The notes beneath the pieces are model-generated. The model was not told the DNA's origin, did not search any database, and was given only the letters and a program-made list of their open reading frames with translations. DNA of 64,000 nucleotides, taken from positions 1-64,000 of the forward strand of contig CDROCS010001116.1 in the NCBI GenBank assembly GCA_977020255.1, read 5' to 3'. Below, piece by piece: positions 1,501 to 55,170 of this stretch. The stretch comes from Obrimoposthia wandeli. Lineage: Eukaryota. Every line of letters starts with the position of its first letter. The first letter of the stretch is position 1. A program made the translations under genes and the position numbers.

Positions 1501-1544
1501 TAGCTTCATTTGTTTCTCGTTGTTGTTTCCTCTTTTCGGTGTAT

Positions 1545-2005: not shown

Positions 2006-2059
2006 ATTCTTTTCCTTTGGATCCCTCAGGAATGTCGTCCATCCGTCTTTGTTCTTGCA

Positions 2060-2475: not shown

Positions 2476-2959
2476 ATTTGTGGCATTAATTCTGACTCTT
2501 CAAGTTTTAGTCTTTCTAATCTCTTCTCTATCTGTTCGTCGATGTTAGTTGTTTTGTTGTTTCTTTCCTCTCAGCATTCGTATTGCTGGAGGGGATATTC
2601 ATCTTTGTCTCTGATGTCTGTTCCTTTGTTGAGTCTTCTTCCGACTCGGTCTCCTCTGTGATTTATTCGTCTTTCTTGTATATTCTGTTTCACGAATTCT
2701 ATGTTTTGTCTTTTTCTGCTCTCTTTAGCGAATTCAACCTCCATGGTTCTTCCGAATCGCTCTATTATGTTATCTTCGGATTCTGTTGATTCTGTATCGT
2801 TACTTTCCGGTTCGCTGTCTTCATCAGACTCGCTCGGAAGGGTATTCTGGTATGTCTGTCTGAACTGAAATTAATGAAGGTGTTAGAATAATTGGATTGA
2901 TTTCCCTTCGTATTTGTGAATCGGATACGGTATTACACTATCTTCCTTTTAAGTATCTT

Positions 2960-3925: not shown

Positions 3926-3929
3926 TTTC

Positions 3930-5200
3930 CTCCTGGTACTTCATTCTGAGCATACCAATTCTCGCTGGTTTTTTCTCGCTACCACTAGTCATCATGTTTA
4001 TGTAGTTCCGATCACTTACCATTCGTGTAAGTTTAATGGTATTGGTATTTGGCTTCGATTTCTGTGATCTTAACTCATATCGTGACGCATTGTCTTTATT
4101 TGGTACCAATTTGCATCGATTTGCATGTACAATCATCGGTTCCTTGTTCCGATTCTCTTCGTTGATTACTTTCAAATTTGTTGAGGTTGTCTGGATCACC
4201 TTGTATGGTCCTTTGTATGGTCTATGAAGTTTAAACGATAGACCTGGTTCGATGACTGGATAAAATATCATCACTTGATCTCCGACTCTAAATTCATGTG
4301 GTTTTGCTTTTTTGTCGTATTGTTCCTTGTAACCTTCTTGATTGAATTTCAACTTCAATCCGGCTTTGGTCCAAGCATCTTGTAACCTTTCCTTCATGAC
4401 GACAATGTATTGTTCAGTTTCTAGGTACTGAGATGTTGGCTCGGTCCACTCCAGATCCATTGGCATATTGTTCTGTCTGAGATACATCAGATAGAATGGT
4501 GTGTGACCTGTCGCCTCTCGAACTGAATTCCTGTAAGCATATAAACATGAAGGTAAATATTTATCCCAATCCTCTTGCTTATCTGAGCAATAGGATTGTA
4601 CCATCATACATAAAGTTTTATTAAACCTTTCCACCAGACCATCTGTCTGTGGGTGGTATGGTGAAGTTTGTAACTTCATGATTCCGAATATCTTCGATAC
4701 TGCTTTTATGACTTCTCCAGTGAAGTTCTTACCTTGATCCGTTAACAACTTTCTAGGTACTCCGTATCGAAATATTATCTCTTCCACTAAGATTTGCGCT
4801 ATTGTTTCAGCTTTCTGGTTCTGCATGGGGTATGCTTCTACCCATCTCGTCATGTAGTCCGTAAATACTATGACATACTTGTTTCCTTTACTTGATTCTC
4901 TCAATGGTCCCAAGCTATCCATCGCTGTGAATTCCATTGGTGCCAAGGGAACTGGCATTGGTTTCAACGGAACTTTAGTACGAGTTCCGGTGTCTTTTCT
5001 GGTTAAACATACTTTACATTGTTTACACCATTGTTTTATGTCGTCTTCCATACCATCCCAATGGTACTTCTCTTTGATTCTGGCTATTGTCTTTCGCCCT
5101 GACAGATGTCCTCCTAGTGTTCCGTCGTGATACTGATCATCACTGCTGTTTTCAATGACTTCGGAATTACTACTACTATCTTTCCGACATTATTGACAAT
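3930..5200 (-). CDS. pol: Integrase (HHCC, DDE core, GPY/F module)
   Basis: CKQC, AMDSLGPL, LTDQGKNF, YHPQTDGLVERFN, YKGPYKV. Confidence 0.96.
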
Positions 5201-5217
5201 ATACAAGATTCCTTCTT

Positions 5218-7044
5218 TTATCGAGTATTTTTCGCCATCTCATCGTTTAGATCTCCTTTCACCAACAAGTCTTTGATTAGACTCAGCTCTTCATCTTCTT
5301 TCTGTTCTTTGATGATCTCTTTGTCTATTTTACCCGTCTTTAGCAAAATCGTCAGTAGATTTGCTTCTCCTTTTTGGTCATTGGTTTCATCTTCTTCTGG
5401 AATTATGTTTCCTTTCTCGTCTACATTTGTCAATCTCGATAAACAATCTGCGTTGCCATTCGACTTTCCGGTTCTATAACGGATTTCTAGATCGAATTCG
5501 GCCAATTTTAGAAACCATCTGTTTAATCTACTCATCTCATCTCTATGTTTATATAAGAACTGTAGTGGTTTGTGATCTGTATACAGGAATACTTTTTGTC
5601 CTAGCAAATAGTGTCTGTATTGTCTACATGAATACACTATGGCTAGACATTCCTTTTCGATAACAGAGTATCCTCTTTCAGCTCTGTTTAATCCTCTACT
5701 CGCATACGCGATGACGTGTTCTCTTCCTTCGTCATCCTCTTGTCCCAATACTGCTCCTACAGCATAGTTACTTGCATCTGTCATAAGTATGAATTGTCGG
5801 TTTATATCTGGAAACGCTAATATTGGTGCTTTTATCAGTCTTTCTTTTAAATGCTCGAACGCTTGTTGGGCTTCTTTTCCCCATATGAACTTTTCATCTT
5901 TCCTTGTCAACTTTCTCAATGGTGTTGCTATATCTGAAAAATGTTCAACAAATCGTCTATAATAATTCGCAAGACCTAAAAAACTCTGTATTTTCTTAAC
6001 AGTCTTTGGCGCTAAATGCGCTTTGACTTTCTCGATCTTCGCTGGATCAGGTCGAATGCTTTCTTTCGATACTATATGTCCTAAAAATGTTACTCCTCTT
6101 TAGCCCATTCGCATTTTGTAGGTTTAACTTTTAATTTAGCGTTTTCCAGTCTTTTAAATACAACTTCAAGATTTTTTAAATGTTCTTCGAACGTTTTAGA
6201 AAATATTATTATGTCATCGATATAAACCATCGTGTTTGCACACGATGCGAGTACAAAATTCATGCAACGCTGAAATGTTGCTGGAGCTCCTGTCAGTCCG
6301 AATGGCATCTTTTCGCATTCGTACAATCCATCTCCGCAGGAAAAGGATGTTTTGTGTTTATCCTCTTCCTCTATCTCGATTTGCCAGTATCCACTCTGCA
6401 AATCTAATGTCGTAAAATAATCTGAATTACCCAATTTATCGAGCATCTCTTCGATTCTAGGTAATGGATACACATCTTTTCTTGTGATCTTGTTCAGTTC
6501 TCTGAAATCTATACAGAATCTCATTTTCCCATCCTTCTTTTTTTTGCACCAACACCACTGGTGCTGAGAATGGCGAAAAACTTGGTCTAATTACTCCTGT
6601 TTTAGACATATCTTCGATCTGACTTTTTACTTCATCTTGTAATTGTAATGGTACTCGATATGGTCTTCTTCTGACTACTTTGTCTTCTGTCAGTGGTATT
6701 GTATGTTTTATGACAGGTGTTTCTCCTATGTCATATGGATTTTTTGCAATTACTTTCGGAAATTTATGTATTAGATCAAGTAATTGTTTCTTTTCTCTAG
6801 TTGTCAGTCTTTCTGATTGAATTACTATTTCTTCGTAATCATTCGTATCTTTATCGAGTTTCATAGCACACGGTGGGATTCTCCATCTGTGTATCTTTCC
6901 CAACCTCATTCCTCTGTATAATAGAATGTCATTGTTGGTTGTATTCATCAGTCTAACTGGTATTTTATGGTTTTCGATCAGGCATACTGTACTCACAACT
7001 GGTAATTCGTATTTCTCTATGAAATCTCGTGATGGTTCGAACAC
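5218..7044 (-). CDS. pol: Reverse transcriptase and RNase H (frameshifted)
   Basis: RFCIDFRELN, YPLPRIEE, LDLQSGYWQ, MPFGL, YIDD; RNase H TDASNYAVGAVL, EKECLA, TDHKPL. Confidence 0.97.
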
Positions 7045-7099
7045 AACTGGTCCTTTATCTTCTGATAATGTGTGACCTTGAATAAGAAATTGCGATCTT

Positions 7100-7560
7100 T
7101 TACCGATTTTTAGGATTCTCTATGATTACATCAATTTGGTTTATTTGTCTGTTTGATGTGCTATCCTTCAATCTTGGATCTTGTAAATCAATACTTATCC
7201 CTTGCTGTTGTGATAGTACATCCATTCCTAAAATTGTAGGTTCAGGACATTCTTTCATGATTCTAACTGGTATAGTGATCGTATTACGTCCAATTATAAA
7301 TGTACATGGTAATATTCTCGTCACTTTTACAGGGTCTCCATTGACCGATACCAAGAATTCATCTGGTTCTGCCATTGTTCGTTTCTGTTCCTCTGTCAAA
7401 CAGTCTTCACTTACTATCGAAGCTACAGCACCTGTATCAATTAAAGCTTTTACTCTTAAATTATTTACTCTAATGATAGCTGCTGGTCGCTGTGCTCCAT
7501 TTATGTTTCCCATGTGGTATATTGTATTTATCGAATTATTACACTCTGTCAGTCCACCTT
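7100..7560 (-). CDS. pol: Aspartic protease domain 2
   Basis: KALIDTGAVASIV...ILGMDVL. Confidence 0.92.
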
Positions 7561-7985
7561 CCTATGTTTGGATAGTGAAATCTAATGCTCACTTGTCGAT
7601 CTATTATTCTTCGACAAATTGGACATGATACCATTTCATTCGCACATCTCCGACATGTTCTTACATGTCCGCATGGTAGAAAGGCAACTTCTATTTTGTT
7701 GACCATGCAAACTGCGCATTCCGGATCTTCTAGTACGTATTCTAATTCATTTATGTACTCTTTCTCTTGTTTCAATTGTACTGTCATCTTTATCTCGCAG
7801 TATTCAAAAATCGATCCGTATCCGTTTCGCGTAGTTTTTATTTTTAATTCTACCAATTCTCTGATTCTTTCTGCTTCTTTTGGATATAACCTTCTTACGA
7901 ATGACACTACCGGTGTGTCTTGTTGAGCTAAAATCTCTTTCCGTGTGATTTGGTATTCGATTATACATTCGGTTTTCTGTTCTTT
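7539..7985 (-). CDS. IAP UBA-like linker plus C3HC4 RING
   Basis: DTPVV...RIRELVELKIKTTRNGYGSIFE resembles the cIAP UBA. CAVCMVNKIEVAFLPCGHVRTCRRCANEMVSCPICR is an IAP-type RING. Confidence 0.9.
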   Translation of the reverse strand, partial: KEQKTECIIEYQITRKEILAQQDTPVVSFVRRLYPKEAERIRELVELKIKTTRNGYGSIFEYCEIKMTVQLKQEKEYINELEYVLEDPECAVCMVNKIEVAFLPCGHVRTCRRCANEMVSCPICRRIIDRQVSIRFHYPNIGRWTDRV

Positions 7986-7989
7986 TTGC

Positions 7990-8200
7990 TTTATTTTGTT
8001 TTTAAAAATACAAAATTCTGCAAAATTCATGATGTAAAATTTTCTTAGGTAGCTCAAGAGTATATCTGTCGATAATTCGTTCTTTTACACTTGTGGCATT
8101 TAATTACGTCTTTACCATCCTTATAGCAAAAAGTCCCTTTTTTGCCAATTTTTAAGTCTTGGATCTTCGAAAGTTACTTCTCGATATTGTTCGTCACATT
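7990..8200 (-). pseudogene. Degenerate or frameshifted BIR domain 2
   Basis: Across frames: REVTF...KLAKKG.FCYKDGKDVIKCHKC...HHEFC. The His-Cys spacing is not canonical. Confidence 0.55.
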
Positions 8201-8329
8201 CGTTCACTTCTCGCATAACTTCGTATATATCTTCAATTCGACTATTCATTATTACTCTTCCTGTTTTTAGAGCTGCTTCTCTTTTTAGGATCCGTCACTG
8301 TAATCGAAATCGGTGCTTTTCCCGGTTGG

Positions 8330-8586
8330 ATTTCTGGTACGTTTGACGTTTTCAGTTTCAAAAGAAATGGACAATTTGGTGCATCTCTTTTATGACGTCT
8401 CATTGGGTTTTCATTCTGTTCCCATTCTCTAAACTTTACTCTACACCATACGCATCGTACTACTATCTCCTGACCATAACTGCTTGTCGCATTTAGCATT
8501 TCTAAACCTGATCTTGCCATTTTACGTGCCATTCCTTTTGAATAGTACTGTTCTAATATATTTCGTCTCTTTCTCTCGAATCTCAT
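8330..8586 (-). CDS. BIR domain 1 of an element-borne IAP
   Basis: Exact CX2CX16HX6C signature (CVWC...H...NCPF, 8371-8454), preceded by MARSG. Confidence 0.92.
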
Positions 8587-8799
8587 GGGATCCTTTTCTG
8601 ACAGATTTACATATGTTATTTTTCTCCTCGTCGTATCTTGTGGTCCGAAATTTACATTTTTGTAGTGAAGTATCGACTTTGCTAGCGCTTCACTGTTTTT
8701 TGTCTGGGTACGAACTTCCCATACAGAACATATTGTATTTTTCCTTTTCGACTACAGGTCATCTCAACATTTTTATCTCTCTCACTGAACTGTCATTCT

Positions 8800-9130
8800 T
8801 ATAATTTTTGTTGTTTGGTAGTATAATTATTCCTTCAAACATTCGTATTACGTCCATCCCAATCATGACTGGACTACCGCAATCTGTGAATATTCTAGCA
8901 TTTAACTGTAATGCTCTTCCATCGATATTCAATGAACATTTCAGTGTTCCTTCCGACACTACATCTGTACCATTCACGTTAACAAATGTCTGTTTTCTAG
9001 GACATACTTCTCTTAATTCTTTTGATGACAAGATTTCTTTACTCAGTACTGATACTGCAGATCCGGTATCAACTTCGGCAAGATATTCTCTTCCGTTCAA
9101 TGTTACTGCTACTTGTGGTGGAGCATTTGG
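8800..9130 (-). CDS. Aspartic protease domain 1 (retropepsin)
   Basis: LAEVDTGSAVSVL...VMIGMDVI. Confidence 0.88.
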
Positions 9131-9236
9131 ATTCTCATTTGATATCCTAGACTTCAGAATTCTTCTGGAATTATCTTTTTGTCTTTTTCCTCTGCTTGTG
9201 GAATTTCAGTGTAGCTCACTTTAGGCCATCTTATCA

Positions 9237-11340
9237 TTAAGATGCCTCTCTTGAACTTTTCCTTCTCTCCTCCTTTCGTTCCTTCATTGCATATCGCCTT
9301 AACGCCACTTCCTCTTTGTCTGGTAACGGAATCTTTGGTTTTCCTGGTATCTTTGCATATACTCCTGGACTATCATTATCGTCGTCGTTATCGTCTCGAT
9401 AGTTTCTTGGTTCTCTCATCATGGTTCTCGTTTGGTGTTGTTCCTTCTTGAGGGCTCGCAACTCGTTCTCGTGATGATGATGGTGCATTAGATATTTTGC
9501 TAAAAATGGAAAACATCCAATTATAAGTTGCCAGGTGATTCCGGTTATCCTGTATAAACTATACGTAGACAACACCTGGGCTATAATTACCTGCACAAAT
9601 TTAATTATAACATAAATACCTATGATACCCGAAAATAATTGTCCTAAAACAAGGAATTTCCCCCACATCTTTCTAAGTGTCTGATGTGCTGCTTCCTTGA
9701 AATGACTTGGCGATAATAACATATCGAAATTCGCATATCTCGCTCCTGGCGGTAATGCTCGATGTACCATCTCCGTAAGTACTCTGGCTCTTCTTACTGG
9801 AAACATTATTTCGTTCCACGCCGCTTTTAAATCTTTTTCATTGTACAATCCTGCGTTCTCCATATTTTCCACCGCTTGGAATTTCATTTTACCTTTAAGA
9901 TTAGTCATTCTTATCATCGCTGGGGTTTTCGTTGGCTTTCGATCAGGTAACGTTATCCATAGATTATTCGTCATCTGATATTCAGGTGCCATTATATTAG
10001 AGCAGCTGATTTCTTTAGTTGGAGTGTCTTTTGGAAGCAACATTCTCGTGATTGGTTCAACAAAAAGATCTTTTAAATTATACGTTACTGCCAATTCGCT
10101 CGTACATCGATCTGTTTTTCTCAACTGTACCTCTACTTTATTACACTTGTAAGTATACTATACTTCTCCCATGGTTTTAGCAAATACTCCTTCATCCAAG
10201 GGTAATAATGGTGCTACCATGTCTGGATTCGTAATAGCTAATGCTAACTTTGTTCTTACGATCTCTTTGTTTAGCTGGCAATCTCTTTCTATCATCATCC
10301 GATATAACTGTTCCATTTGCATCAATCCTTTATGATAATAGAAATCAATTTTATTATTAAAATACGTGTGTAGCTGCATATCTTTTGGTTTTAGCTTGGT
10401 TTCTGCCAATGCTATTGCTTCTTTAGACAAAACTATTCCTGGATAGTTTGTAGTACTAACAGTCATTCCGCATCGCGCTTTGTTTCTCTTTTTAATAAAT
10501 ATCAATCCTTCTTCTATTGATGTTGCCATTAACAGTGTAGGTGTCTTTGTCATTGGAATTGGTCTTGTTTCATTGAGCAATCCTTTTCCTACTTTATTAT
10601 ACAGGAATCCTTTCTCCATCTTTATTATACAGGAATCCTTTTATTTTATTAAAGCTAATCTCTTTCAAAAATACTAAAGAGCATTGCTTCGGATTTATGT
10701 TATACATAATTTTGGCTTCCCCTGTAAAACAGGATGCATCTGTCATTTTACATTCTGGATACTTCATCATTAGTTGTGTCTTTTTATCAAAATTGGCGGT
10801 CCATGTTTTTAATTCGATCTTGTAAGTTACATCCATTACTAACTCAGATACTTTGGTTCCACGCACGTTTTTGTTTCTCCGTCACAAGATCCATCGGCCC
10901 ATCGTTGTCCGACTCTCGTGACTGTTTCGTATCGTCTCACTCCAATTTTACTTCAGGTTTGTAATTTTGTCTACCTCTATTGTTCCCGTTCGAAATGCAT
11001 CTTCGCAATCTCTCGGCAAACCTTATGTGCCTTGTACGGTGTGGTAGGTGTGATTTCTGACATAAAAACTTCTATGACCACAATAGAATTCGTGATAACT
11101 TGAATGGATTGAACATTCTTTCACTTCTACTTGTACTTTATCAACATCCTGATACACAAAGTAGTTTTCAACACCTTGAACTTCTAGTTTTGACGGTTGT
11201 GATTCTGGACAGTCTTCGCTGTCAAGCAGTGAATACTTTTGTCCCATCTTTGGTATGCTACAGTCATATGCTATCAATCCTGATGCCTGTTGCATTCCCA
11301 TAAACATTACTAACATCATCATCATCATTGTTGTGGACAT
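9237..11340 (-). CDS. env: Envelope: chuvirus (Jingchuvirales)-type glycoprotein, ~700 aa, in 4-5 frameshifted pieces
   Basis: Signal peptide then LIAYDC, FYCG, TNYPGI, TYFNNK, DCQL, GEV..YKC, AGLY..D, IMFP and a C-terminal TM region. The order and spacing match chuviral G motifs as I recall them. Confidence 0.85.
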
Positions 11341-11399
11341 ATTTGGTTGATTGTTTCTCTCTTTCGGACGGTATTGTTTATTTTCCTTTGACGATTCTC

Positions 11400-11857
11400 A
11401 TGACATTGTTCGTCATCGTCTTCATTCATTTCCACAATGGTTTTAGCGTAGTCACTTAATTTTGCCCAACCTCCATTTTCGTCGATTCGTCTCTGTAATA
11501 CATTCTCGATCAAAATACATTGCTTCATTTATTCCTTGTTTGACTTCGTGAGGTTGGCTCGTTCGTTCCGTCAATTGGAAACATAGATATGTGATTGCTG
11601 TAATTAACTTTTATTTGTAGTTTGGTTTCCACATAATCTCGCTAAAACTTCACCGTCATAAAATCTATCTATCGATGCATGGTATACATGATTCGCGGTC
11701 ATTCTCTTTACTGCAGACATCTGTGATCTGACTGCTTTAGTCAAATTGTCTCGTTATATCGGTTGTTTCATCTCTGTACATTTTAAACAACTTCGGCTTC
11801 ACTTGCCTGAGAATTCCCGTAAGTATATCTTTACTACTTGGAGTTTCCGAATTCATA
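11400..11857 (-). pseudogene. Possible Bcl-2-fold domain split by frameshifts
   Basis: Reconstructed EVKQGINEAMYLIENVLQRRIDENGGWAKLSDY resembles the BH2 region (WIQENGGW). A hydrophobic helix KLITAITYLCFQL lies upstream. Confidence 0.4.
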
Positions 11858-12112
11858 TCACCTCTGATATCTTCTATTCCTTTCTGCACTATACTGCTCC
11901 AATGACGCTGCTAACTGTCCAATGCTTAGATGTCTCTCTTCATCAGTTTGTGGTGCAGTTAGAACGTTTCGTAATATACTTTCGCCTTTTCTAGGTCTTC
12001 CAGGTCCTCTTCGAAAATACTGATACTCAGTTTGATTCTCTCCCTGGATCATACGGTTCATCATTATACTGTATCTCTTGACTTGGTCCTTCTTCATGGC
12101 CAATCTCTTCAC
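11858..12112 (-). CDS. AT-hook-containing fragment, probably a frameshifted continuation of the Ubl ORF
   Basis: RRGPGRPRKG motif. Confidence 0.6.
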   Translation of the reverse strand: MKRLAMKKDQVKRYSIMMNRMIQGENQTEYQYFRRGPGRPRKGESILRNVLTAPQTDEERHLSIGQLAASLEQYSAERNRRYQR

Positions 12113-12178
12113 TTTGTCTCATCATCTGCTCTGCTTGTCTATCTTTGTATGCAGCATGCCAAATTGGTGAATCTAAAT

Positions 12179-12742
12179 CTACAATTTCGAGACTTCGTCT
12201 TCTCCTACTAGTTGGGTTACGGTTTCGTTTTGTCTCACTTGGTTAGCTGTATCCGTGACTTCATCTTGTCTGATTGGAATTATATCTGCTGGTGGCACCT
12301 CGACCACTGGAGTTGTCAACTCATTTTCTAAATTCATGTCTTGTAATTCAGTTACGTACGGTTCTGGTGTGGATGTCTTGTTCCAAGCTTCAGCTACATC
12401 ATTATCTCCGCTTTCGCTTGAACTGTCTAAAATTTCTATAGGCGTTTTTATCATTTCTAACGCAGAATTCAATATCTCGGTTAATCCTTCATTATCTACT
12501 AACTCTTGACGTCCTACAGTGATGACATCAATTTTTTCCTCTAATTCATTTCCTATCGGATATCCAAACTCGACTGGTACGTCCTCATCATCTAGTGATC
12601 TCCCTTTATAATGGAACAACATATTCATTCCATCAATTTCAAGTTTCTCAGCCAACTTTTTCCGAATCGTTTTCATTGTTTGATACACGTTAAGTTTTTC
12701 ATGTATTATCTGTCCGGAAATTAATCGAAGTGAAATTTTCAT
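12179..12742 (-). CDS. Ubiquitin/SUMO-like domain protein with acidic tail; ATG overlaps the gag stop (ATGA)
   Basis: MKISLRLISGQIIHEKLNVYQTMKTIRKKLAEK...LFHYKGRSLDDEDVP...KIDVI aligns by eye with ubiquitin and SUMO beta-grasp patterns. Confidence 0.7.
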   Translation of the reverse strand: MKISLRLISGQIIHEKLNVYQTMKTIRKKLAEKLEIDGMNMLFHYKGRSLDDEDVPVEFGYPIGNELEEKIDVITVGRQELVDNEGLTEILNSALEMIKTPIEILDSSSESGDNDVAEAWNKTSTPEPYVTELQDMNLENELTTPVVEVPPADIIPIRQDEVTDTANQVRQNETVTQLVGEDEVSKL

Positions 12743-14991
12743 CGTTCCTTTTGGTTTGATCTCTGTACATAACGACCATAACCTTTCAGTAGTCCTCGGG
12801 GTACTTCTTTGTAACCCAAGTTATCATGACTATGTTTAACCAATTCTGCACGCACTTCTTCCAATCGGTGCACTTTAATTGTTTGCAATTTGGCCAGAAC
12901 TTCTGGAGCTTCACTCGTTTCATCTAACGGTTGATTTAACGTCTCCTTAGCTTCACTAATTATCTTTTTTACATTTTCCATACTCGTAGCATTTCTCGCT
13001 GCTTCCACATGATCAGTCATAGGTTGTGCGTTACACGTTTTCTCTATTGGTGTCTCATACGCTTCTAATATTCTATTCATTAAATCATTCATCTCTTCTC
13101 TCGAATGTAGACTTTTCTCTTGTTTCGACAACGTAGATGAATTCGCCATCTTTGTATGTGGTGAATCTTTAATTATTCCCAACATTCGTTCAAATTTACT
13201 ATCACTATCTTCAAAATCTATTTCGCGTCGAAGCTCGGTCTCGCGATTCCTATCACTGTCATCGCTTACATAACTAAAATTTCCTTTCGGTTTCGGCGAA
13301 CTCTCACGACTATTTGTCTTGTCAACATTATTATTATTATATCTACCGGAATTATTATATCTCTCAGCTCCTTGCTGTCCTACGTAATTATTGTATCTCT
13401 CAGCTCTATGCTGTCTGTATGCATAGTTATTATATCTACCTGGTGACTGTTGTCTATCTGTATACTGATTATTCAGTCTCCATGGTTGGGGAGTATATCC
13501 ACCACCTCTATTCCATGGCGGAGGTGAATTATATCCTCTATAATTATTTCCAAAATTATTATTACCGAAATTATTATTTCCAAATCTGTTAGTTCCGAAC
13601 TCTTTACTTCTCGTACAATCTCTCGAATAATGACCCATTTGTTTACACGTGTAACACATTATTCTCCCTCGAATATCTATCTTATTTTGTTCATCTTCGA
13701 ACTGTACTCGACGACTATTCTGTCTATTATCATAGCGTCCTCTAAAATCATTTCTTCGGAAATTCGATTCAAAACCGCTTCCTCGATTATTGAATCTTCC
13801 GTCACTATTTCCTGCATTATTTCCAAATCGAGAGTCACTTCGCTCTCCTCTGTTGGCGTTATAATTCCTATCGTCTCCTCTCAAGGTTGGCGATTTCGAA
13901 TTATCTCTATTAAATCTATTCCTGGAATCATCTCTATTTCTATTCCACGAATCATTATTATTTCTACCTCTTGAATCATCTCGATTCCTGTTCCAAGACT
14001 CACTATTATTTCTACCTCTCGAATCATCTCGATTCCTACTTCGGAAATTATCTCTATTTCCGTTACTGGATTCATCTACTTTTTCGAACTTATTTTGTCC
14101 ATAACTTCGATTCTGAAAATTACTCGGTTCTGTTTTATTCACGAAGACCTTTGTCTTATCGTCGTCACCTGCAGTCATTGCGTAGATTGCCAATGCTGCG
14201 TTATTCTTTATATTTTTCTCAATCTCTCTCGCCTTTCGCACGGCGTTATCAAAATCATTTGTATCCGATACTGCTAATAACACTTTAATATCCTTTTTCA
14301 ATCCTCCTCTAAATATATCTAACAAAACCTCTGCCATTTCATTTTGGTTCCGGTCATTTTCCGCTGCTTGTGCTTCTTGAGGTACAGGAATACCGTCCTG
14401 ATTTCTCATTATTCTTCTTGGGTACGCTCTTGCGGCCAAGGTTCTCAAAACATACGCGTATTCATTCACGCCTTCATCATGTTTCTGTTTCCGTTCTCTC
14501 ATGAGTCGCTTATTTACTTTGGCTAAGTCTCCTAATACCAATTTTCCAATAAAAGCATTTTCCAACGTTGGCCAATCTAAACGTTCTGCTTCTGTCAAAT
14601 GTTTATACACTTCAAGTGCTAATCCGGTTAAATGTGCCTGTACTCTAACACATTTTTCTTTATCGTTCCATCCTTGAACATCTGCACAACTCGAATATTC
14701 TGCGAGGAAGTCACAAATACTTTCCTCATCTCCTTTAAACTTTGTAATCTGCAATGATCCTGAAAAGTTGGGTCTCAACGTCGCATTTAAAGCTTGTGCC
14801 AACTGCTCGGCATTCATTTCACCTACATTATTTCCTGCATTAATATCTGCTTGAGCTCCTGGTTGAGCCATATTTTCAACTATAACTTCTTCAACTATTT
14901 CTTCAATATTATTCAATGGAACTTCCTCAATCACTACTGGATTGGCAATTTCAAATTCTTCTTGGTCTATGTCACCAAATAATTCAGTCAA
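12739..14991 (-). CDS. gag: Gag polyprotein (capsid region, N/R/G-rich repeats, single CCHC zinc knuckle)
   Basis: Retrotransposon capsid-like KFKGDEE...GWNDKEK...HLTGLA. Zinc knuckle CYTCKQMGHYSRDC. The frame is open upstream to ~15243 and the first in-frame ATG is at 14871. Confidence 0.93.
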   Translation of the reverse strand: MTELFGDIDQEEFEIANPVVIEEVPLNNIEEIVEEVIVENMAQPGAQADINAGNNVGEMNAEQLAQALNATLRPNFSGSLQITKFKGDEESICDFLAEYSSCADVQGWNDKEKCVRVQAHLTGLALEVYKHLTEAERLDWPTLENAFIGKLVLGDLAKVNKRLMRERKQKHDEGVNEYAYVLRTLAARAYPRRIMRNQDGIPVPQEAQAAENDRNQNEMAEVLLDIFRGGLKKDIKVLLAVSDTNDFDNAVRKAREIEKNIKNNAALAIYAMTAGDDDKTKVFVNKTEPSNFQNRSYGQNKFEKVDESSNGNRDNFRSRNRDDSRGRNNSESWNRNRDDSRGRNNNDSWNRNRDDSRNRFNRDNSKSPTLRGDDRNYNANRGERSDSRFGNNAGNSDGRFNNRGSGFESNFRRNDFRGRYDNRQNSRRVQFEDEQNKIDIRGRIMCYTCKQMGHYSRDCTRSKEFGTNRFGNNNFGNNNFGNNYRGYNSPPPWNRGGGYTPQPWRLNNQYTDRQQSPGRYNNYAYRQHRAERYNNYVGQQGAERYNNSGRYNNNNVDKTNSRESSPKPKGNFSYVSDDSDRNRETELRREIDFEDSDSKFERMLGIIKDSPHTKMANSSTLSKQEKSLHSREEMNDLMNRILEAYETPIEKTCNAQPMTDHVEAARNATSMENVKKIISEAKETLNQPLDETSEAPEVLAKLQTIKVHRLEEVRAELVKHSHDNLGYKEVPRGLLKGYGRYVQRSNQKER

Positions 14992-15483
14992 ATTAAAACT
15001 GCCGGTTGAAACCGCTGATTGATCAACGCCTCTTTCTGATACGTTTTCTTCGACTCTAGTCTTTTCTGTTACTTTGTTATCTGTTTGGGGAACCTGTTCA
15101 ATTCGGTTAACTTTATTATTATTTATCTCTTCCTTGGGAATCTGACTTTGTCTTCTAGTATTATACGCGGGTCCTTTTCTATTATCCGTTGTCTTATCAA
15201 TTATGTATTCGTTTACGATATCAATATACTTATTATTTTTATCTTATTTCACAATTCTTATTTTACGATTTTTTATCTCTTTAATTAGTTCGAGGACAGA
15301 GTCTCCCGACTTAACCTATTCAATTAATTACTTCGAGTATCAATCCACTCGATTCTCACTTTATCAATTTATTTACGATTTTATCTTTTTAATTAGTTCG
15401 AGGACAGAGTCTCCCGACTTAACTTATTCAATTAATTACTTCGAGTATCAATCCACTCGATTCTCACTTATAAAATTTACTGA

Positions 15484-16263
15484 CTCGAGGAACAAATCCA
15501 CTCGACTTCTCAAAACTTATCAAATTCTTACTTCGAGGAACGAATCTACCCGATTTCTCAACACTTATCAAATTCTTAACTTCGAGGAACAAATCTACCC
15601 GATTTCTCAACACTTATCAAATTCTTAACTTCGAGGAACAAATCTACCTGATTTCTCAACACTTATCAAATTCTTAACTTCGAGGAACAAATCTACCCGA
15701 TTTCTCAACACTTATCAAATTCTTAACTTCGAGGAACAAATCTACTCGATTTCTCAACACTTATCAAATTCTTAACTTCGAGGAACAAATCTACCCGATT
15801 TCTCAACACTTATCAAATTCTTAACTTCGAGGAACAAATCTACCCGATTTCTCAACACTTATCAAATTCTTAACTTCGAGGAACAAATCTACCCGATTTC
15901 TCAACACTTATCAAATTCTTAACTTCGAGGAACAAATCTACCCGATTTCTCAACACTTATCAAATTCTTAACTTCGAGGAACAAATCTACTCGATTTCTC
16001 AACACTTATCAAATTCTTAACTTCGAGGAACAAATCTACCCGATTTCTCAACACTTATCAAATTCTTAACTTCGAGGAACAAATCTACCCGATTTCTCAA
16101 CACTTATCAAATTCTTAACTTCGAGGAACAAATCTACCCGATTTCTCAACACTTATCAAATTCTTAACTTCGAGGAACAAATCTACCCGATTTCTCAACA
16201 CTTATCAAATTCTTAACTTCGAGGAACAAATCTACTCGATTTCTCAACACTTATCAAATTCTT
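15484..16263. repeat. 49-bp tandem array (16 copies) in the 5' leader
   Basis: Unit TTCGAGGAACAAATCTACCCGATTTCTCAACACTTATCAAATTCTTAAC, starting at 15532, 15581, 15630 ... 16218. It is preceded by two related 108-bp units at 15289 and 15397. Confidence 0.97.
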
Positions 16264-45000: not shown

Positions 45001-46149
45001 TTTTAGAAATTATATCAAATCTCTCTATGTCAAACAATTTTATATTGATATTTCTGTCGCAAGTGACATTACATAAACTTGCAGACACACACGTAAATCG
45101 GTACCACTTCACAGATAGAAGCAGTGAAATAACATGTGTGTATGTGGTGCAGTTAAAATTGGGTAGGCAGAAAATCGATAGAGGATATAGTCATTTCTTC
45201 TGTGTTATCTCATACTGGGCAATTTTCCTACCGCGAAGCACAAGATAAAAACAGGACATCACTGACAAAATCGCTGTTCGACTATGGGCACTTCAATAAA
45301 TTGATTTAAATTTAAATTGGAATATTTTAATTCCCAACATATTTAACTTTTATCTCATGTGTTTGAATCCTTTCGCATAAAATCTTTATCAGAGGATGGG
45401 CTAGATCCTAAGCATTTATTTAGTTTACTGTGGCAACAGTAGGTGGATATGACCGGTCTAATCCACCTCCTCCCCGTGCTGTACTACTGTCCTTTAAAAC
45501 CGTGCATGTGTGGAGTGAAATTTCGTGAATGTGTGTTCAATTCACCCCCACCCGAAGGGGCGTGGGGTACCCCATACATTTTTTATGTGTTACTTGAAAT
45601 TTTGCAGCCAATCTCAAAAGTGATTAAAGAAGACCACTATAATAGATATTGACTCCCGTCGGCTTATTGCAGACGAGATTTCAGACAATACTTTTATGTG
45701 AATATATGACTACTATTTTTAAAGAGATAACAGATTTTACATTAATGCATTATTACATGTATGTTAACAGGACAAAATAACTAGGTCAGATTTATATAAT
45801 TTATAGGAGAAAGAGAACAAAATACAAGACTAAATTCATTTCAATACATTTATTAAACAACTCAAATATTAAACACCATATAAGCTTCACTCAAAGTCCA
45901 AAGATGTTGTATTTTCCTGTCATCAGCATAATATCCATTTAGTCGTATGGAAATATTCCATAGTTCTTCGTCTAAAATTGGAGCAATCAAAAAACCTAGA
46001 TAATTGTCTATTGTATTTTTTCTTGAAAGTTTCTTATAAACAAATATATGTTTTTCTATTTTTTAAAATGCTTATTGATAATATACTTTATTATACGACT
46101 GTAAATAATGTTTTAGTTAGACGAAAAATAGAATATTCTAGAATGAAAG

Positions 46150-46930
46150 TTTTGCATGTGAAATATACACGTGAAAGTGAAAGATTAAAATCGTTGTTTA
46201 TAAATTTTAATGGGAAACAATCTGAAAGTGATTTAGCTAAAGCCGGATTTTATAAACAGGATGATGATTCAGCCGATAAAGTAAAATGTATATACTGTCA
46301 AATGCATTATCTATTTGGGAATGGTATCTTAAACCAATGAAGAAACATATGATTTTTTTCTACATGCCCATTTCTTTTAAAATTACATTTTCAAATGTAC
46401 CAATTATTGAAACTAGTGATAAGAACCACCATTGATCGGAAAAGTATATGTATCAGATATTGACGTAAAATTACCTGATATATAATATTCAAAATGTTTA
46501 GGACCCTATAATGATGCTAATGTTATTGAGAAAATCGAAACAGATTGTATAATTGAATATCCTATAACTACAGAAAAATTCAATATGTTGATGGATACAA
46601 ACGAAATCAGATATTTGAAAAGGTTTTTTATCAAAAGATAGAATAAAATCTTTTTTTAAATATAAGATGATACGATATGGGGAATACAAATCACTATTTG
46701 AAATGATTTGTGATTTATCTTATTTAGAAATAAAACCTGAGAAACAATATATAAATATATTTTCATAAATTTTAAAAGACCTTAATGTGTAGTGTGTTTA
46801 AATAATCATATTTAAGTAGTATTTCTACCACTCAGACATGTAAATACATGTATATATAATGTCCCAGGATGCTACATTCATGTCCAGTATGTCGATGTAT
46901 AATTGAAAGGAGAATAAGAAATGTAAAATT
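46150..46930 (+). pseudogene. IAP pseudogene (BIR...UBA-like...RING) in the Maverick region
   Basis: RESERLKS...LAKAGFY...DKVKCIYC...KKH...TCPFLLKL..SNVP; ETDCIIEYPIT; CVVC...VVFLP.RHVNTC...CPVCRCII. Confidence 0.85.
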
Positions 46931-47289
46931 TCATGGTATAAACAATTGAAATTTGGCGATTTTTTCAAAAATGAATAAATAGGATAAATTAGTTGATGAT
47001 AATGTTGATGAAATTATAAAAGGAACAATAAATGGCGTTCAATACTTTTCAAGATTTAATGAAGATAGTCGTGATCACCTTAAAGAAATAATTCGCTCAC
47101 ATGTTTACAGAGATCTCAAATGGAAATTGGATCTTGAAAATTTCATTAAGATTATTCGTTCAAATATGATGTATATAACTTTTTCTGTATCAATTTTTAA
47201 TTCTTTTTTGGTGTATATATTAATAAAATGCTTATAAACAATATTCTTATTCTTATTATTTTTATTATTAATATGAAACTTTAAAATTA

Positions 47290-47885
47290 TGCGGTACATG
47301 TTGAACCAGTGGGACCCAGTGGGAGAGGAAAAATACATTTTGTAACTAAATTATTTCAAAACAATAAAATGTTTAATAATCGATTTAATGAGATTTATTG
47401 AGATTTATTGGCATTATGGTGATGTTTGTGAATCGGGGTTAACGAAAAGGGAATTATGTAAACTTAAAAACATAACATTTGTCAATGGTTTCGATTTAAA
47501 TTGGTTAAAACGGTTAAAACGTGATTATGTTATAGTAATTGATGACTTGTATGATGAAGCAAATAAAGAGTCAAGCTTTAATAATTTATTCATTAAAATA
47601 AAAAGAAACACTGTGTTACTGTAATTTTCATTACTCAAAACCTATTTCATCAAGGCGGTAAACATAGAACACGTAATTTAAACGTACATTGCTTGGTTTT
47701 TGTTTAAGAATCCTCGTGATCAAACGGTTATTGACTATTTTTCATGTCAAGCATTTCCTAATAACTGGCAATATTTGATAAATTCATTTCAATATGCAAC
47801 AAAAAATCCCCATGGATTCTTGTTTCTTGATTTCACTCAATCCTGTCCTGGTGAATTGAGAATACGAACCGATATTTTCAACAAC
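47290..47885 (+). pseudogene. Maverick packaging ATPase (copy 1)
   Basis: GPSGRGK, VIDDLYDEA, ITQNLFHQG, FKNPRD, GFLFLDFTQ. Confidence 0.88.
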
Positions 47886-50037
47886 TGTATGGTATATAAA
47901 CAAAATTAAAGATAATATTTCTTAAATATGAATTTTGAAAAATTGAATTTCGAAAAAATTGAAATGACTAATTATGTTGATACAAATTGGAAACCTTGTG
48001 ATGATATCAAACATAAAAGAGTAAAAAATTGATTAAAGCAGTGTTGAGGGAAGACAAAATGCTGATCGCATATTCAAAAAAGAAGACAAAGCTGAGAACT
48101 AAAAAACGTGTTAAAAAGAAGAATAAAAATGGGTTAAAAAGACAAAGAATTGTATTGTAATTGATAAAAAGGGAAAACAAAAAGGAGGTGTTAACTCATT
48201 TTCTCAATAAGACTATAAACAATATATGTGCTTTCAGGTTAAATAATAATGAAAAACGTTTTACCTTACTTTCAAACGCTTTTAAAAGCACCTAGTTCAC
48301 ATAGAGCTAAAATTCTCAAGTCATTTCCGCCTTTTGTTATAGATAAATTGGTTGAAATTCTGTTTTATATAATTAAAGGAAAAGTCAATCTCGGTAAACA
48401 TAAGTCGAAAGTTACAAAACACAAGAAAGTATTACTTGACCGATGCAAAAAAGGTTCCCGACACGATCGTACAAGACTAGTGACCCTAAACATTTATGGC
48501 AAAAGTGGGGGTACACTCTATTTTTATTTTACTTAAAAGTGTACCGATAATCTCAAAAGTGATTAAAGAAGACCACGGGAATCCATATTGACCCCGACGG
48601 CTTATCGCAGACGAGATTTCAAATAATATGTTTATGTGAATATATTACTACTATTTTTAAGAAAGATTTTAGATTAATAAATTACTAAATGTTTGTTAAA
48701 TATTTAAGTCAGCTTTTTTATAATTTATAAGATAAAAAAAACAAAATTAGTTTAGGTCAGATTTATATAATTTATAGGAGAAAACAATTATAGGAGTAAA
48801 ATCCCAAATACGAGACAAAATTTGTTTCAAAACTTTTATTAAATCAAACATAAAACATCATAATGGCTTCACTCAAAGTCTAAAGAGGCTGCATTTCCCC
48901 ATCATCGACAAAAATATCCATTGAGACGTATTGAAATATTTCATAGTTCTTCATCTAAAATATATATATAATCAGGTATGTAAAATCCCAAAATATTTTT
49001 CGAAAATTGATGTTGTTAAAATTTTGATGAGATATTTATTCTCCACTTTTTATATTTTCACAGGATTCATAACTCGAATAATTAGATGCATCTTTAATAT
49101 ATTACATGACTTTCCTTTTGAAATTATTTCTGAATAATAAAAATGTCCTACATATCTCAAAAGTGGATTCATTCTAAAATAAAGAAACTGATCAAAATAC
49201 AATGTTAAATAAAAACTGATTATTACATGCCAAATGAAGGAAACATATTAAAAATGAATAAAACCGATTAAAATTTATTACATTCAAAATCAAAGAAAAA
49301 TAAATAGTTAAAACATATGGATATGATTAGGACGTTCAATTTTCCACATAGGTAAAATTGTTCAAATTTCATCTTTATTGTAACCATAAAGTCGAATTCT
49401 TATAGTCCATTGCTTCTTTTTCGGAAACGCATCAACATATTTTTATCTTCATTAGTCATCTAAAAATGCTGTATCAGCTCCTCAGATATAAAATTCGTTC
49501 TTAAAGAATGAAAAATTTAGAACTGCCTTTTCAACTTTCGGTTTAAGATATTGAAAATCTGGTTTTTGAATATTTGATAAATAATAACTAAACTTTTTTC
49601 TTTCAATTGTCACAGAATTTACTAAAGCAATCAGTTGAGCCTTCTTCAAGAATCTGACTTTGTATTTTAAATATATTGTTTCACTTCTTCATACATATTC
49701 TTATCCGATTCTTCAAATATTTCTAAATCTTTATCACCGCTTAATATCCGTTGGCTATCGTCCATCATTGATAATTGTCTGTGATATGAATGCATTTATT
49801 ATGATTTGTCCTCTAATTCTTTTATACTAATTTGTAACAAAGACATGAATCTCATTGGTTAATATAACTAAAGCATTGAATTTGATTGGACTAAATCCAT
49901 ATTAAAAAACGAAATTTATTGGAAGAAATATATCATCCAATTATAATAGGTTTGCACGATATTTACAAGAAATGTGCAATAAAAAAGCAGGTTCAGACAT
50001 GTTTAAAGAAGAATTTACAGAAAACAATTTCAGTCAA

Positions 50038-50488
50038 ATGAAACTCGTAAATATAAATTATAAAGGAAGAATAGAAGATTATATTTCATACTCGCATTTA
50101 ATGTTTGGAAGCCGAGACAATATCTGAAAACGTTTGATGATTTCACAGTTGTTATTTTTCCTTCAGGTTAGTTTTTATTTTTATTTCATATTGAATTATT
50201 TTAGGAAGTTGTCGTGTTAGGGGATACAAAACACCATTGAATGAGTTCAATTTATCATTTGGAATTCAAATCAGCACCATACAGACAATCACAATTTCAG
50301 CTTATCTCGGGAAAGCAATAAATATTTATAAAATTTCAGAGAAAATGAAAGAAGAATGCATGTTTGAACCGGAAATTTTTCCTACTCTCAGATATTTGAA
50401 GTCTACACCGCTATGTGTAAATATATTTTCCAGTAGTAAAGTTATGATATTGGGATTGAGAAATTTTGATTATCCAGACACTGTTTGA
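50038..50488 (+). pseudogene. TBP-like gene with a predicted 38-nt intron (50167-50204) and one frameshift
   Basis: VVIFPSG|SCRVRGYK after splicing and MFEPEIFPTLRY...VNIFSSSKVMILG mirror the two TBP repeats (IFSSGKMVCTGAK; YEPELFPGLIY...IFVSGKVVLTG). Confidence 0.7.
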
Positions 50489-50809
50489 TTAAACCAATTG
50501 TTTCAAATGAATAATACTATAAATAGATACAATGAAGGGGATCGATGAAATTTTTTTCTGGAAAAATTAAATGTAAATAAATTTTATCAAAATTAAAAAA
50601 TTATGATACAACAAGAGATAATATTGAAATATTGGTTAGATCACATGTTATTTGAAAATTTAGAAATCAAACACAAATAAAAAAATTATATACAAATATT
50701 CATTAATTAATTTTTGTATTTCATCTACAGTAGCTCTAACATTATACGTTTCATTAAGGAAACTTCAATAATAATATAAACAATATTAAAATGAAAGAGT
50801 ATATGTAAT

Positions 50810-51415
50810 GGAGCTAAATAATGCTGTATTTCAAATAGTTGGTTCGACTGGAAGTGGAAAGACACATTTCGTATGAATATTGTTGCAAAATGAATCTATT
50901 TTCAACTCTAGTTTCAAAAATATTTATTACCATCGTGGTGGAGGAGGTGAAAGTAGATTAACCCAAACCGAAGTTTACAAGTTGAAGGGAATAAATTTTA
51001 TTAAAGATTTGATGCGAATTGGTGCGAAAGATTGAAAAAAGAAGATGTAATAATAATTGATGATTTGTATCAGGAAGCTAATAAGGAATCGGACTTTAAT
51101 AATTTATTTACAAAGATAGCAAGACATCGTGAAGTAACAGTTATATTTATCACTCAAAATCTTTTTCACCAAGGAGATCATCATAGAGCAAGAAATCTTA
51201 ATGTACATTACTTAATATTATTTAAATATCCTAGAGATCAAACAATTGTAGATCTCGTAGCCAGACAAGCATTTCCCCAAAATAAAAACTTTCTAGTTGA
51301 TTCATTTCATGATGCTGCTAAACAAGCACATGGGTATATATATATATATATATTGACCTTACACAATCTTGCCCAGATGATTTACGTGTTTTAACAGACA
51401 TATTTAATTCTAAGG
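50810..51415 (+). pseudogene. Maverick packaging ATPase (copy 2)
   Basis: VGSTGSGKT, IIDDLYQEA, VIFITQNLFHQG, FKYPRD. Confidence 0.9.
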
Positions 51416-51642
51416 GAGTAACTGTTTATAAACAAATAGAGAACAATTATATAAAATAAATTTGCAATGCATTTTAAGAAGTTGATAGTGAAACGTAAAC
51501 GTAAAGTAAAAGCAAGACCTAAGAAATAAAAAATAAAAAAACAATAATTAAGAAAAAATAAGTGAATAAATTAATTTAGTTCGAAGTAAAAAAAAATTAA
51601 ATAACTTTGAATATAAACAATATTAAACATGAACTTTTATTT

Positions 51643-51975
51643 AAATGAAGAAAATACAAAGAAGCATACTCGGTTTTAAAGCTTTGATCAAAGCCTTTTC
51701 TCATAAGAGAATGAGTATTCTTAAAGCATTTTCATCTTTTGTTGAAGATGATTTCTTGGAAGTTTTGTAAAATATAGTTTTAGGTCGAGTAAAAAATTGA
51801 AAAACGGAAAGATTTATTAAAGAAATATAGAAATACTCTTCTAGATATTGCTAATGTAAAAAGTAAAAAAAGGAAACGAAATATTATTCTTAAACAGAAT
51901 GGTGGTTTCATATGGGCTGTTATACAAGTTTTTGTTTCAATTATCAGTAGTATTATAGCTGCGACACGTTCATAA
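51643..51975 (+). pseudogene. Conserved small Maverick ORF ending in a QNGGF amphipathic helix (partial second copy at 48249-48500)
   Basis: ...ILKAF...EVL.NIVLG...KKYRNTLLDIA...KQNGGFIWAVI. Confidence 0.55.
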
Positions 51976-52063
51976 ACAATTATTTATAAAATCAGTTAAA
52001 GATATGGGTGCTAACCCTTCTTTATCTAAATTTAAATTTTCTTTCTATTCAAATTGTTGTAAT

Positions 52064-53170
52064 GGAGAAGATATGGTTCAATCCAAAAGATCCAATTGGT
52101 TACACCGGAGTTTTAAAATTAGCAAAAAGAACAAAACAAAATTACAAGAAAACACAGAAATGGCTGAGCGACCAGTTAGCCTACAGTCTGAACAAGCCGA
52201 TGAGAAGAAGGTTTCCAACTAGAGCTTACAAAACCAGCAGTCCTAATAATTTATGGCAAATGGATTTGATGGAGATGATCCCATATTCTTCCATTAATAA
52301 GGGATATCAATATATTTTAACATGTATTGATGTATTTAGCAGGTTTGCTCGTGCAATTCCAGTTAAAGCAAAGTCTTTAATAGCTATGCTTGAAGCCTTT
52401 AAATAAATATTAAAATAGGACATTCCGCAAAATGTGCAAACTGATTTAGGAAAATAATTTTATAATAAGCAAGTTCAATCATTATTTAAACAAAATAATA
52501 TAAATCCCTACTCAGTGTTTTCACAGTACAAAGCAGCAGTAGTAGAAAGATTTAATCGTACTTTAAGAGATCGAATAAAAAAGTATTTCATAAAAGAAGG
52601 AATTAAAAAGTGGATTCAAGTTTTACCTAAAATAATACATGCATATAATCACTCTGAACATAGAAGTCTCAATGGAATAAGATCGGTAAATAAAAGAAGG
52701 AATTAAAAAGTGGATTCAAGTTTTACCTAAAATAATACATGCATATAATCACTCTGAACATAGAAGTCTCAAACATTTAATGTTACTGATAAAAATTCTA
52801 CGGATATTTAGATAGACAGGAATAAAAAAGAAAATGTTAAAATTCTAAATATAAGGAAAACGAATATGTTCGAATTTCTAAAATGAGTTCTACTCCATTT
52901 ATTAAAAAAAATTATCAAAATTGGAGCGATGAAATATTTTGTATAAGTAAAATTGATCAAAAGAGTAATCCAATAATGTATACTATTAAAAATGCTGACA
53001 ATAATATCATTCGGGGTAAATTTTACGAGCAAGAACTACAAGTAATATCAAATAAATCTAAGGTTTTCCACATTCAAAAAATATTAAAAACTAAGGGTAA
53101 ACATAAACAATACTTTTTTAAATGGCATGTTTATTCAGATCCAACTTGGATATCACAATCTAATATAATA
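52064..53170 (+). pseudogene. Maverick integrase with chromodomain remnant
   Basis: LWQMDL, YILTCIDVFSRFA, QTD.GK.F, KAAVVERFNRTL, YN..EHRS; IQKIL..K...KQYF.KW. Confidence 0.9.
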
Positions 53171-53184
53171 TGAAATCTTTGTAA

Positions 53185-55170
53185 ATGGTATTACCTAATA
53201 ACAGATGCCCGAAGACTCAACCGGATAATGACGCTAGTAGCTTTATTATATATTGGAAAAATCCTATAAATCTCCAAGGAGAATTAACAGACTTTTATTT
53301 TTATTATTTTACAATTACTATCAGAAAAAACTTACATATTTCGTTTACAAAAGAAATGAAGTATGATGAAGCAAATCATATTGTGATCAGGTTTGATAGT
53401 AAAGGAAAATTCTATTACAATTGTATAGATAAAGAAGTGAAAGTATTATAGGAAAACAACAAAATAATATTTAAAATCGATTATATTTTATTCAATTTAC
53501 ATTTGAAACTAAAAAGAAGCTTTTCAATTCGGTTTTGATAATGAACATGCAGTAGTTATTACGACACGAGATATTGTCTCATCTAAATCGGTTATAAATG
53601 TTCCTGATAGAGTAGCAAAACTGTTGTTAGCTGAAACTAGATCTAAAGATGTAGTGGAATTGAAAAAGTTTTCAAAAGATTATAAAATAGATAGTGAAGA
53701 GAATTTATGTAAATTTATAATGAAGGAATTTAATGAATATTTGAATAAATATGTAACATTAAAATATGGTAAATTGATGTTTACAGTAAAGAGCAATATA
53801 AAACGGGTTTCCTTTGATGATGAACTCGCTAAAAACTTGTTTTAACCAGAAATACCTTTGAAAGCCATACAATAAAAACCATAAAAACTAAATATACGGC
53901 AAAATCTTTAAATGCTATTAATCAGTTATATATTTATACTAGATTAATAAAAGCAACGCTTGTAGGAGGACTATGAGTTCCACTTTTCAACTTGGCGGCA
54001 GTCAGAGCATCTACTCGATCAGGTATTGTATCGACAGTTTCTGAAACTCCGAGTAGTCTAAACCAATTCCACTGGACATAAGTATGTTCTATGACTTTAC
54101 TTAAGATTCGTATTTTAATCTTCTTTCTTTCTACAGCTGAATATTTGTAAGCCTGGAAATTTTGGTTGTTGTCGGTATTCCAGAACCCGAGGGTCCTAAC
54201 TCTAAGAAAATAGAGTTCTACCATTTTTCACTATTATCTTTCCGCGTAATCTCGACTAGATTCTGATATTTGTCCATTGCTTTGCTGTAACTATTATTTT
54301 GACTTATATTACTGTCAATAGGAACTTTAATTTCCACATAATGGATGTAGGTTCTATTTTTACTGTAACATCTGGTCTTGCTTGCTGAATATTGCCACTG
54401 TTATCCATTACTGTAGTAGTTTCCTCCATGGTTGTTCCTGAAAGTGCGTTAACCATAAATATTTCTTCAAAGGAAGCATTGTCTACAACAACTTGTGGAA
54501 GTGGTTTATCAAAAATACACAATTCAGTTTTGGTGCAACTTATTTTTCACATATTGTTTCTTCAACTTTTTAATATTGTACTTTTGTTTACGTTTAAATC
54601 CTCTACCTTCTTGACTTTTGCTTGATTTATATTTTTATTTAAATTAGAAACTTTTGGTAGAATATTATTAAGTTATGCTTCTTAAAAGTTGGTATTAATT
54701 TATTATCCTTATGTGAAAAGTAATCCTTTCTTAATTTCAATATAAATCGTTTGAGTCTCTTCAAAATCAAAAAGGCAAATCTACCTTATGTTGTAAGCCA
54801 GCCGAATCCATATTGTTTACCAATAAAATATGGTAATTCACTATTTTGTTGGCTTGTACTTTAAGCTTCAATTATTGCTGCATTCACCATTTGCTTTTCT
54901 TCAATGTATTGTAAACTTGTCTTGGCTCCGTATGTAAAATCTATTAGTTGTCCAGAATCATTTCTAAAATTTACTTCAATATTGTCTATAGATAAGAGAG
55001 CAACTGGAAGATACATTGGTTGATCTATACGAATACCGACAACGTCCCCAATTTTAGTTTGACTTTTAGATATCCATATTGTTCTACGAAGTGTGTGGCA
55101 GATTAGACGGATACACCCACTTACATAATCTTTCAGTAACCCAACTCGCGTACTTGTCGGGAGGCCCATT
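53185..55170. pseudogene. Maverick minor capsid (N-half on +, C-half on -) and major capsid N-terminal fragment (-)
   Basis: VLPNN...DNDASSF...PINLQGE (+); QPMYLPV...IEVNFRNDSGQLIDF (-); IFDKPLPQVVVDNASFEEIF (-). Confidence 0.6.

Follow-up and report, generated by a model that had tools for sequence, protein, structure and literature searches.

Anti-apoptotic IAP genes have been described in two kinds of mobile element. Burro is a retroelement with one polyprotein of ~5,000 aa that holds a Gag knuckle, an in-frame mononegavirus-like fusion protein, and a BIR, according to the accessible part of its description (PMC6431247). The B-IAP of Burro1, with a BIR and a RING, was reported to keep planarian stem cells from dying through caspases (Lee et al. 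2026, via the accessible part of PMC13465017) and to underlie a mutualism of host and transposon during planarian regeneration; that part of PMC13465017 leaves a Maverick relative of B-IAP unmentioned. Earlier work on adintoviruses had noted IAP homologs (PMC8502044; one label in supplementary Fig. S2), and no planarian element was found in the accessible part of that supplement. RING-IAPs were reported lost in the sampled flatworms (PMC13159474), and the words "planarian" and "Schmidtea" are absent from the accessible text. The Burro IAP and the Polinton IAP have each been published; no report of a link between them was found in the literature covered, though Lee et al. 2026, which lies outside it, may discuss the origin of B-IAP.

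The window, i.e., the whole 64,000-nucleotide stretch of DNA that was analyzed, contains broken copies of both kinds of gene. Their surroundings, together with one locus from elsewhere in the genome, are as follows (families and contigs outside the window are named by our own labels).

14..15728, minus strand: Burro-type giant Gypsy retroelement, this copy broken (15,865 bp align at 95.8% with a copy whose single open frame encodes 5,262 aa)
2080..2540, minus strand, approximate bounds: dual-specificity phosphatase domain of the retroelement polyprotein
7563..8719, minus strand: IAP of the retroelement, with a BIR, a degenerate second BIR, a UBA-like segment, and a RING; open copies have it in frame, flanked by two aspartic protease domains
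45438..46004, no strand assigned: left-end piece resembling Maverick family C (70–72% to C1696 and C202; 72% to window 48521–48961)
46006..48439, plus strand: 2.4-kb Maverick family A' fragment (83–85% DNA identity along its whole length to C13, C202, C549, and C3832; tblastn map)
46068..46949, plus strand: broken IAP gene (BIR, UBA-like helical segment, RING) of Maverick family A' (six-frame translation, protein alignment)
46971..47228: small 88-aa ORF in the family A' fragment (tblastn map)
47303..47903: packaging ATPase in the family A' fragment (tblastn map)
48243..48482: small ORF at the end of the family A' fragment (tblastn map)
48521..53987, plus strand: Maverick family C relic without IAP (84–90% to the C1696 family-C copy over 48962–53987; 77% over the first 400 bp), also holding the start of a 391-aa ORF, presumed penton
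50195..50473: TBP-like ORF in the family C relic
50823..51411: ATPase in the family C relic
52005..53167: integrase in the family C relic
54431..55093, minus strand: inverted family-C piece that extends into the start of the major capsid gene
L076:2967..3701, minus strand: phosphatase-like ORF near the IAP in Maverick family B

The element at 14–15728 matches the anatomy of Burro (single ~5,000-aa polyprotein, Gag, in-frame fusion protein, BIR, and PR-RT-RH-IN), an assignment based on domain order against the published description of Burro; by this match, the host is probably a planarian. The Pfam order in the open 5,262-aa frame was zf-CCHC, mononegavirus-like fusion protein, PR, BIR, RING, PR, RT, RH, IN, and DSPc. 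No LTR pair was seen within 40 kb. When the genome (1.35 Gb) was searched with the retroelement IAP, the best 150 of 20,376 candidates were all 99–100% identical, with open frames of up to 5,295 aa. The IAP at 7563–8719 has nine frame-changing gaps, yet is 98.9% identical to an open copy, and the gaps may partly be assembly errors. A weak ubiquitin-like match (E 0.017) lies after Gag in the polyprotein (12179–12820, minus strand), and tandem arrays with units of 49, 20, 19, and 25 bp occupy 15383–18102 on the 5' side of the retroelement.

The first-pass annotation had reported an IAP at 46150–46930 in a Maverick relic and had related it to the retroelement IAP by short strings common to both. 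Every quoted string was located by six-frame translation: CPFLLKLKTSNVP, KTECIIEYQIT, YGSIFE, and FLPCGHVRTC...CPICRRII in the retroelement (minus strand), and TCPFLLKL followed by SNVP in another frame, ETDCIIEYPIT, YKSLFE, FLPLRHVNTC, and CPVCRCII at 46 kb (plus strand). The gene spans slightly more than had been given, 46068–46949, and has seven frame-changing gaps relative to an open natural copy; its UBA-like label comes from alignment to XIAP-type proteins, not from Pfam. It does lie inside a Maverick piece, but the relic is composite: the 2.4-kb family A' piece with the IAP is flanked by pieces of family C, of which the single further copy examined outside the window has no IAP. The integrase and capsid pieces of the window were rejected as partners of the 46-kb IAP, as they belong to the other Maverick family. 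Further Maverick scraps were found at 18645–19743 (ATPase and small ORF, minus strand) and 20454–20775 (C-terminal piece of the polymerase, plus strand). Nested inverted arms (~200 bp, 88–92%) at 38883–40016, around the ORF pair 38417–38917, form a unit that looks like a small DNA transposon.

Outside the window, the IAP is regular Maverick cargo. A DNA search with the 46-kb IAP gave 39 further near-full matches at 84–88% (best 40 of 2,907 candidates scored). In a BIR search (best 150 of 12,110 candidates scored), the 30 loci read comprised 18 of family A type, 10 of family B type, and two other BIRs, which we take to be survivin-like and BRUCE-like. Maverick genes were present within 1.5 kb of all 39 IAP loci checked (11/11 and 28/28), with one Maverick gene only in the flanks of five. 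The open natural Maverick IAP is intronless, and its BIR (46–53 bits in open copies) and RING (42–47 bits) exceed the Pfam cut-offs. That intact Mavericks carry the gene between their terminal inverted repeats, proposed earlier as a check, was confirmed: an open IAP sits between terminal repeats in family A elements of 15,207 and 15,033 bp. Copies of this family are 15.0–15.2 kb long and ~97% alike, with terminal inverted repeats of about 580–615 bp and 6-bp target-site duplications at two of three copies (the third is without the right tip); these ends are those of family A, which supplies the closest complete relatives of the window piece, and the window relic itself is not intact. The sequence at 46 kb is thus a broken copy of an intronless IAP carried by Mavericks as cargo. 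A processed host pseudogene was rejected given the 39 further near-full copies in one search and the Maverick context of those examined; open frames in the relatives and dN/dS below 1 also speak against it.

Family A elements begin with a small ORF and the TBP-like gene, followed by IAP, ATPase, integrase, presumed penton, capsid, candidate protease, and candidate polymerase. Family B has a longer IAP ahead of the TBP-like gene, followed by a phosphatase-like ORF, and a candidate polymerase in four copies, and family D was without IAP in the one copy examined outside the window. The integrase (rve 47.1 bits, plus a weak chromo match) and the packaging ATPase (Pox_A32 27.6 bits) scored over the Pfam cut-offs, and the candidate adenovirus-like cysteine protease under it (Peptidase_C5, E 0.0076, 16.4 bits). 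A 1,202-aa ORF with an endonuclease VII insert gave no polymerase match in Pfam and PHROG searches; it has what we take to be three polymerase-B motifs, picked out by eye. For the capsid, a low-confidence model (pLDDT 41.7) had only double jelly-roll capsid or scaffold proteins among its listed fold matches, the best being Mavirus (E 4.7e-7, TM about 0.3), and the protein is accordingly modeled as a double jelly-roll major capsid protein.

Several structural variants were observed among these Mavericks. In a family B derivative of ~14.5 kb, the left arm is repeated in inverted orientation (4.0–4.8 kb, 99.1–99.9%) in place of the polymerase arm, so that IAP and TBP-like genes are each present twice and the polymerase is missing. 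It occurs at three loci that are about 99% alike and match across the element only (G000:C609, L070–L073; C777, L074–L077; C873, L310–L312), and is likely a non-autonomous unit that moved recently. Mavericks are often nested in other Mavericks, e.g., family D within the ATPase of family B, while a family A integrase houses the double-IAP derivative (G000:C463, L201–L203; C609). At G000:C3084 (L042–L044), three identical Maverick IAP fragments ~7.15 kb apart suggest a tandem array or an assembly artefact. A single-repeat TBP-like ORF (Pfam TBP ~49 bits) is found near the ATPase in families A, A', B, C, and D (e.g., window 50195–50473, L059:6006–6338, and L075:5914–6309).

The retroelement and Maverick IAPs form one clade, as the first-pass annotation had claimed, and do not group separately when outside IAPs are included (no named viral IAP in the trees). 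In a profile search of 1.84 billion representatives, three unnamed proteins, P0009, P0054, and P0078, matched in one full-length stretch among the 150 listed; two of the three come from public metagenome assemblies. Single-protein and five-row homolog searches gave three and two matches, and a third search no further clade member among 120 listed. Of 256 outside proteins, the 204 that passed a BIR+RING pattern were used as outside rows, and 30 and 14 of them were hand-picked for the smaller trees. The clade of eight rows (element IAPs, P0009, P0054, and P0078) received SH-like support of 99 in FastTree (212 rows), SH-aLRT of 100 in a quick mixture-model tree (38 rows), and 100/100 in a careful tree with a simpler model (22 rows). 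Since the programs flagged clade members for long branches and odd amino-acid composition, a composition-preserving control was added. Against the retroelement IAP, the BIR-to-RING segment scored 138 in Maverick A and 158 in Maverick B. The best of 216 outside IAPs reached 70 and 79, respectively, and none of 200 shuffles of the retroelement protein exceeded 58. The C-terminal tail scored 50 (outside controls at most 33). All clade members have this extended tail and not the usual short IAP C-terminus, and two clade motifs, chosen after viewing the alignment, occur in none of the 216 outside IAPs. The BIR alone is non-diagnostic (190 and 210 of the 216 score as high as the retroelement copy), and the pre-BIR segment alone scores at chance level, so its border is not significant by itself. 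As far as sequence comparison goes, the likeness exceeds both chance and generic IAP likeness. A structure model of the IAP (pLDDT 41) was left out of the reading.

Within the Mavericks the gene has been exchanged. From the start of the IAP through the next small ORF to the start of the ATPase, families A and A' are ~85–95% identical, against 59–77% on both sides of this cassette (three A' copies outside the window); the window A' copy has 74–96% identity inside it. ATPase and integrase trees separate A from A' at 100/100, whereas the IAP tree mixes them. The cassette was swapped once between the two families, with sharp borders, and the IAP gene does move. The dN/dS of the IAP was 0.27–0.35 between Maverick families or subfamilies B and B' and 0.23–0.31 between Maverick and retroelement, where synonymous sites are near saturation; between families, the gene is under purifying selection (0.23–0.35). 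Among close copies the ratio was 0.34–0.78, as expected with decay after insertion.

A second gene may link the two elements. Apart from the integrase, the phosphatase was the sole further match of the Burro polyprotein to these Mavericks (E 1.5e-16). The phosphatase-like ORF of Maverick B scored 58–60 bits to the Burro phosphatase and 39.9 to the best solved phosphatase, in a comparison with solved phosphatases, and presumably lacks the usual catalytic motif. In a genome search for host phosphatases, the 150 scored matches fell into one narrow score band and are presumed to be Burro copies. From these similarities, the phosphatase is possibly a second cargo common to Burro and Maverick B.

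As to age, the protein identity of the retroelement and Maverick IAPs is 35–38%, and natural open copies align end to end (B to A 46%, B to retroelement 35%). In the 22-row tree the Maverick IAPs form a group of their own (99/97), and the retroelement IAP lies outside it, loosely with P0078 (77/92). Nesting the retroelement IAP in family A or B was marginally rejected (AU p 0.048), and other arrangements inside the clade were not rejected (AU p 0.35 and 0.25). The second BIR is whole but degenerate in the retroelement IAP, half present in family B, and absent in A. The identity indicates an old split, so the 46-kb relic is not the donor of the Burro IAP; the un-nested position and fuller second BIR of the retroelement IAP exclude every extant Maverick family here as donor, and place the link before families A and B. 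Of the transfer first proposed between a dsDNA element and a retroelement, the shared lineage is supported; a recent direct transfer between these two elements was rejected, given the 35–38% identity and the position of the retroelement IAP outside the Maverick IAPs. Their 38-kb proximity (37.3 kb measured), taken earlier as a hint of exchange, carries no information: it is due to chance, because both elements are abundant repeats, and on C549 the members of another such pair are ~17 kb apart.

The Maverick frame has 301 aa, of which the retroelement match covers residues 2–300, and the outside member P0078 has a Met start just before the shared HY motif, so a stand-alone gene looks ancestral. 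Together with the position between two proteases, the match makes capture of a stand-alone gene the simplest reading. The 46-kb IAP is a copy of Maverick cargo, and we propose, at an even chance, that the same lineage entered the Burro polyprotein through ancestral capture of the whole frame from a Maverick-type element. The gene would have begun as a stand-alone two-BIR IAP, which Mavericks would have kept as a gene of its own and shortened, leaving half of the second BIR in family B and none in A. An ancestral Burro would have acquired this frame intact from an ancestor of Maverick type and inserted it between two protease domains, which would free the IAP from the polyprotein by cleavage. 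If it resembles Burro1 B-IAP and viral IAPs in function, the predicted product would be a BIR-RING ubiquitin ligase that restrains caspases, so that the host cell survives during element replication. We infer the direction, with a Maverick-side origin of the Burro IAP about evenly balanced.

It is less probable, though to be taken seriously, that a fast-evolving planarian-lineage host IAP paralog was captured twice as a processed copy, by Mavericks and by Burro, and has since been lost or hidden among repeats. Retroelements readily capture host mRNAs, the retroelement and Maverick IAPs occupy separate branches of the clade, and P0009, which is full length with the most host-like BIR (71.9 bits vs 46–53 in the element IAPs), could be a host gene. 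Against this, five own-genome searches found no host BIR-RING gene (best 85–150 of 8,848–20,173 candidates each): all fetched loci were element copies except two single BIRs, and a canonical three-BIR query gave element copies only at 25–28%, plus one deleted family-B copy at 34%. These searches were swamped by repeats and matched exon by exon, and with few candidates scored an intron-rich host paralog could be missed. The extended tail in all clade members also speaks against a double host capture, as does the reported absence of RING-IAPs from the sampled flatworms (accessible part of PMC13159474), with which the own-genome result is weakly consistent.

That a third mobile element, e.g., an undescribed flatworm DNA virus, gave the IAP (and perhaps the phosphatase) to both appears improbable. 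Large DNA viruses typically carry IAP, phosphatase, and TBP-like genes, and the clade has three divergent unnamed members, two of them from metagenome assemblies; however, viral scans with the IAP alignment, P0054, or the capsid yielded no match, a further viral scan gave three generic IAPs, and in the metagenome scan the 80 loci that were kept out of 181 were likewise generic; these 83 loci scored at most 62 on the BIR-to-RING segment. Least probable is that a host IAP entered Burro first and that its segment later passed from Burro cDNA to a Maverick. In favor are the fuller architecture of the retroelement copy and the great abundance of Burro copies; against it are the start and stop that would have had to arise anew at the domain borders, the stand-alone look of the other clade members, and the position of P0009 and P0054, weakly, outside both in the best trees.

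Returning to capture from a Maverick-type element, we tentatively suggest a wider consequence, which we hold to be somewhat less than probable: B-IAP would derive from a polintovirus and not from the host, an anti-apoptotic pool (the IAP, probably the phosphatase) would circulate between Mavericks and Burro in a lineage whose own RING-IAP was lost, and the many open Maverick copies would be a second, hitherto unrecognized source of IAP for the host, which knockdown studies may have overlooked. The Maverick sister gene reopens the question of where the Burro1 IAP came from, and provides a rare case of a cargo gene common to a dsDNA virus-like element and an LTR retrotransposon.

Compared with known systems, this retroelement is like Burro (Burro1/GYPSM1) in its polyprotein, Gag knuckle, fusion protein, and BIR, by the accessible part of the published description, and differs in a phosphatase domain after the integrase and in having no ankyrin or MATH match. 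The Mavericks resemble Maverick/Polinton elements (adintoviruses) in their integrase, ATPase, jelly-roll capsid, terminal repeats, and 6-bp duplications, and have candidates for the polymerase and the adenain protease. Unlike the IAPs noted in adintoviruses, theirs are a distinct lineage, which is shared with a retrotransposon, travels with a TBP-like gene, is patchy across Maverick families, and was swapped between two of them. With XIAP/cIAP/DIAP-type proteins, the element IAPs align at the BIR zinc ligands, the UBA-like helical segment, and the RING, and their atlas neighbors are BIR-RING clusters; identity is only 21–28% over long alignments, and the element IAPs differ in a degenerate or lost second BIR, an extended C-terminal tail, and a long stem branch.
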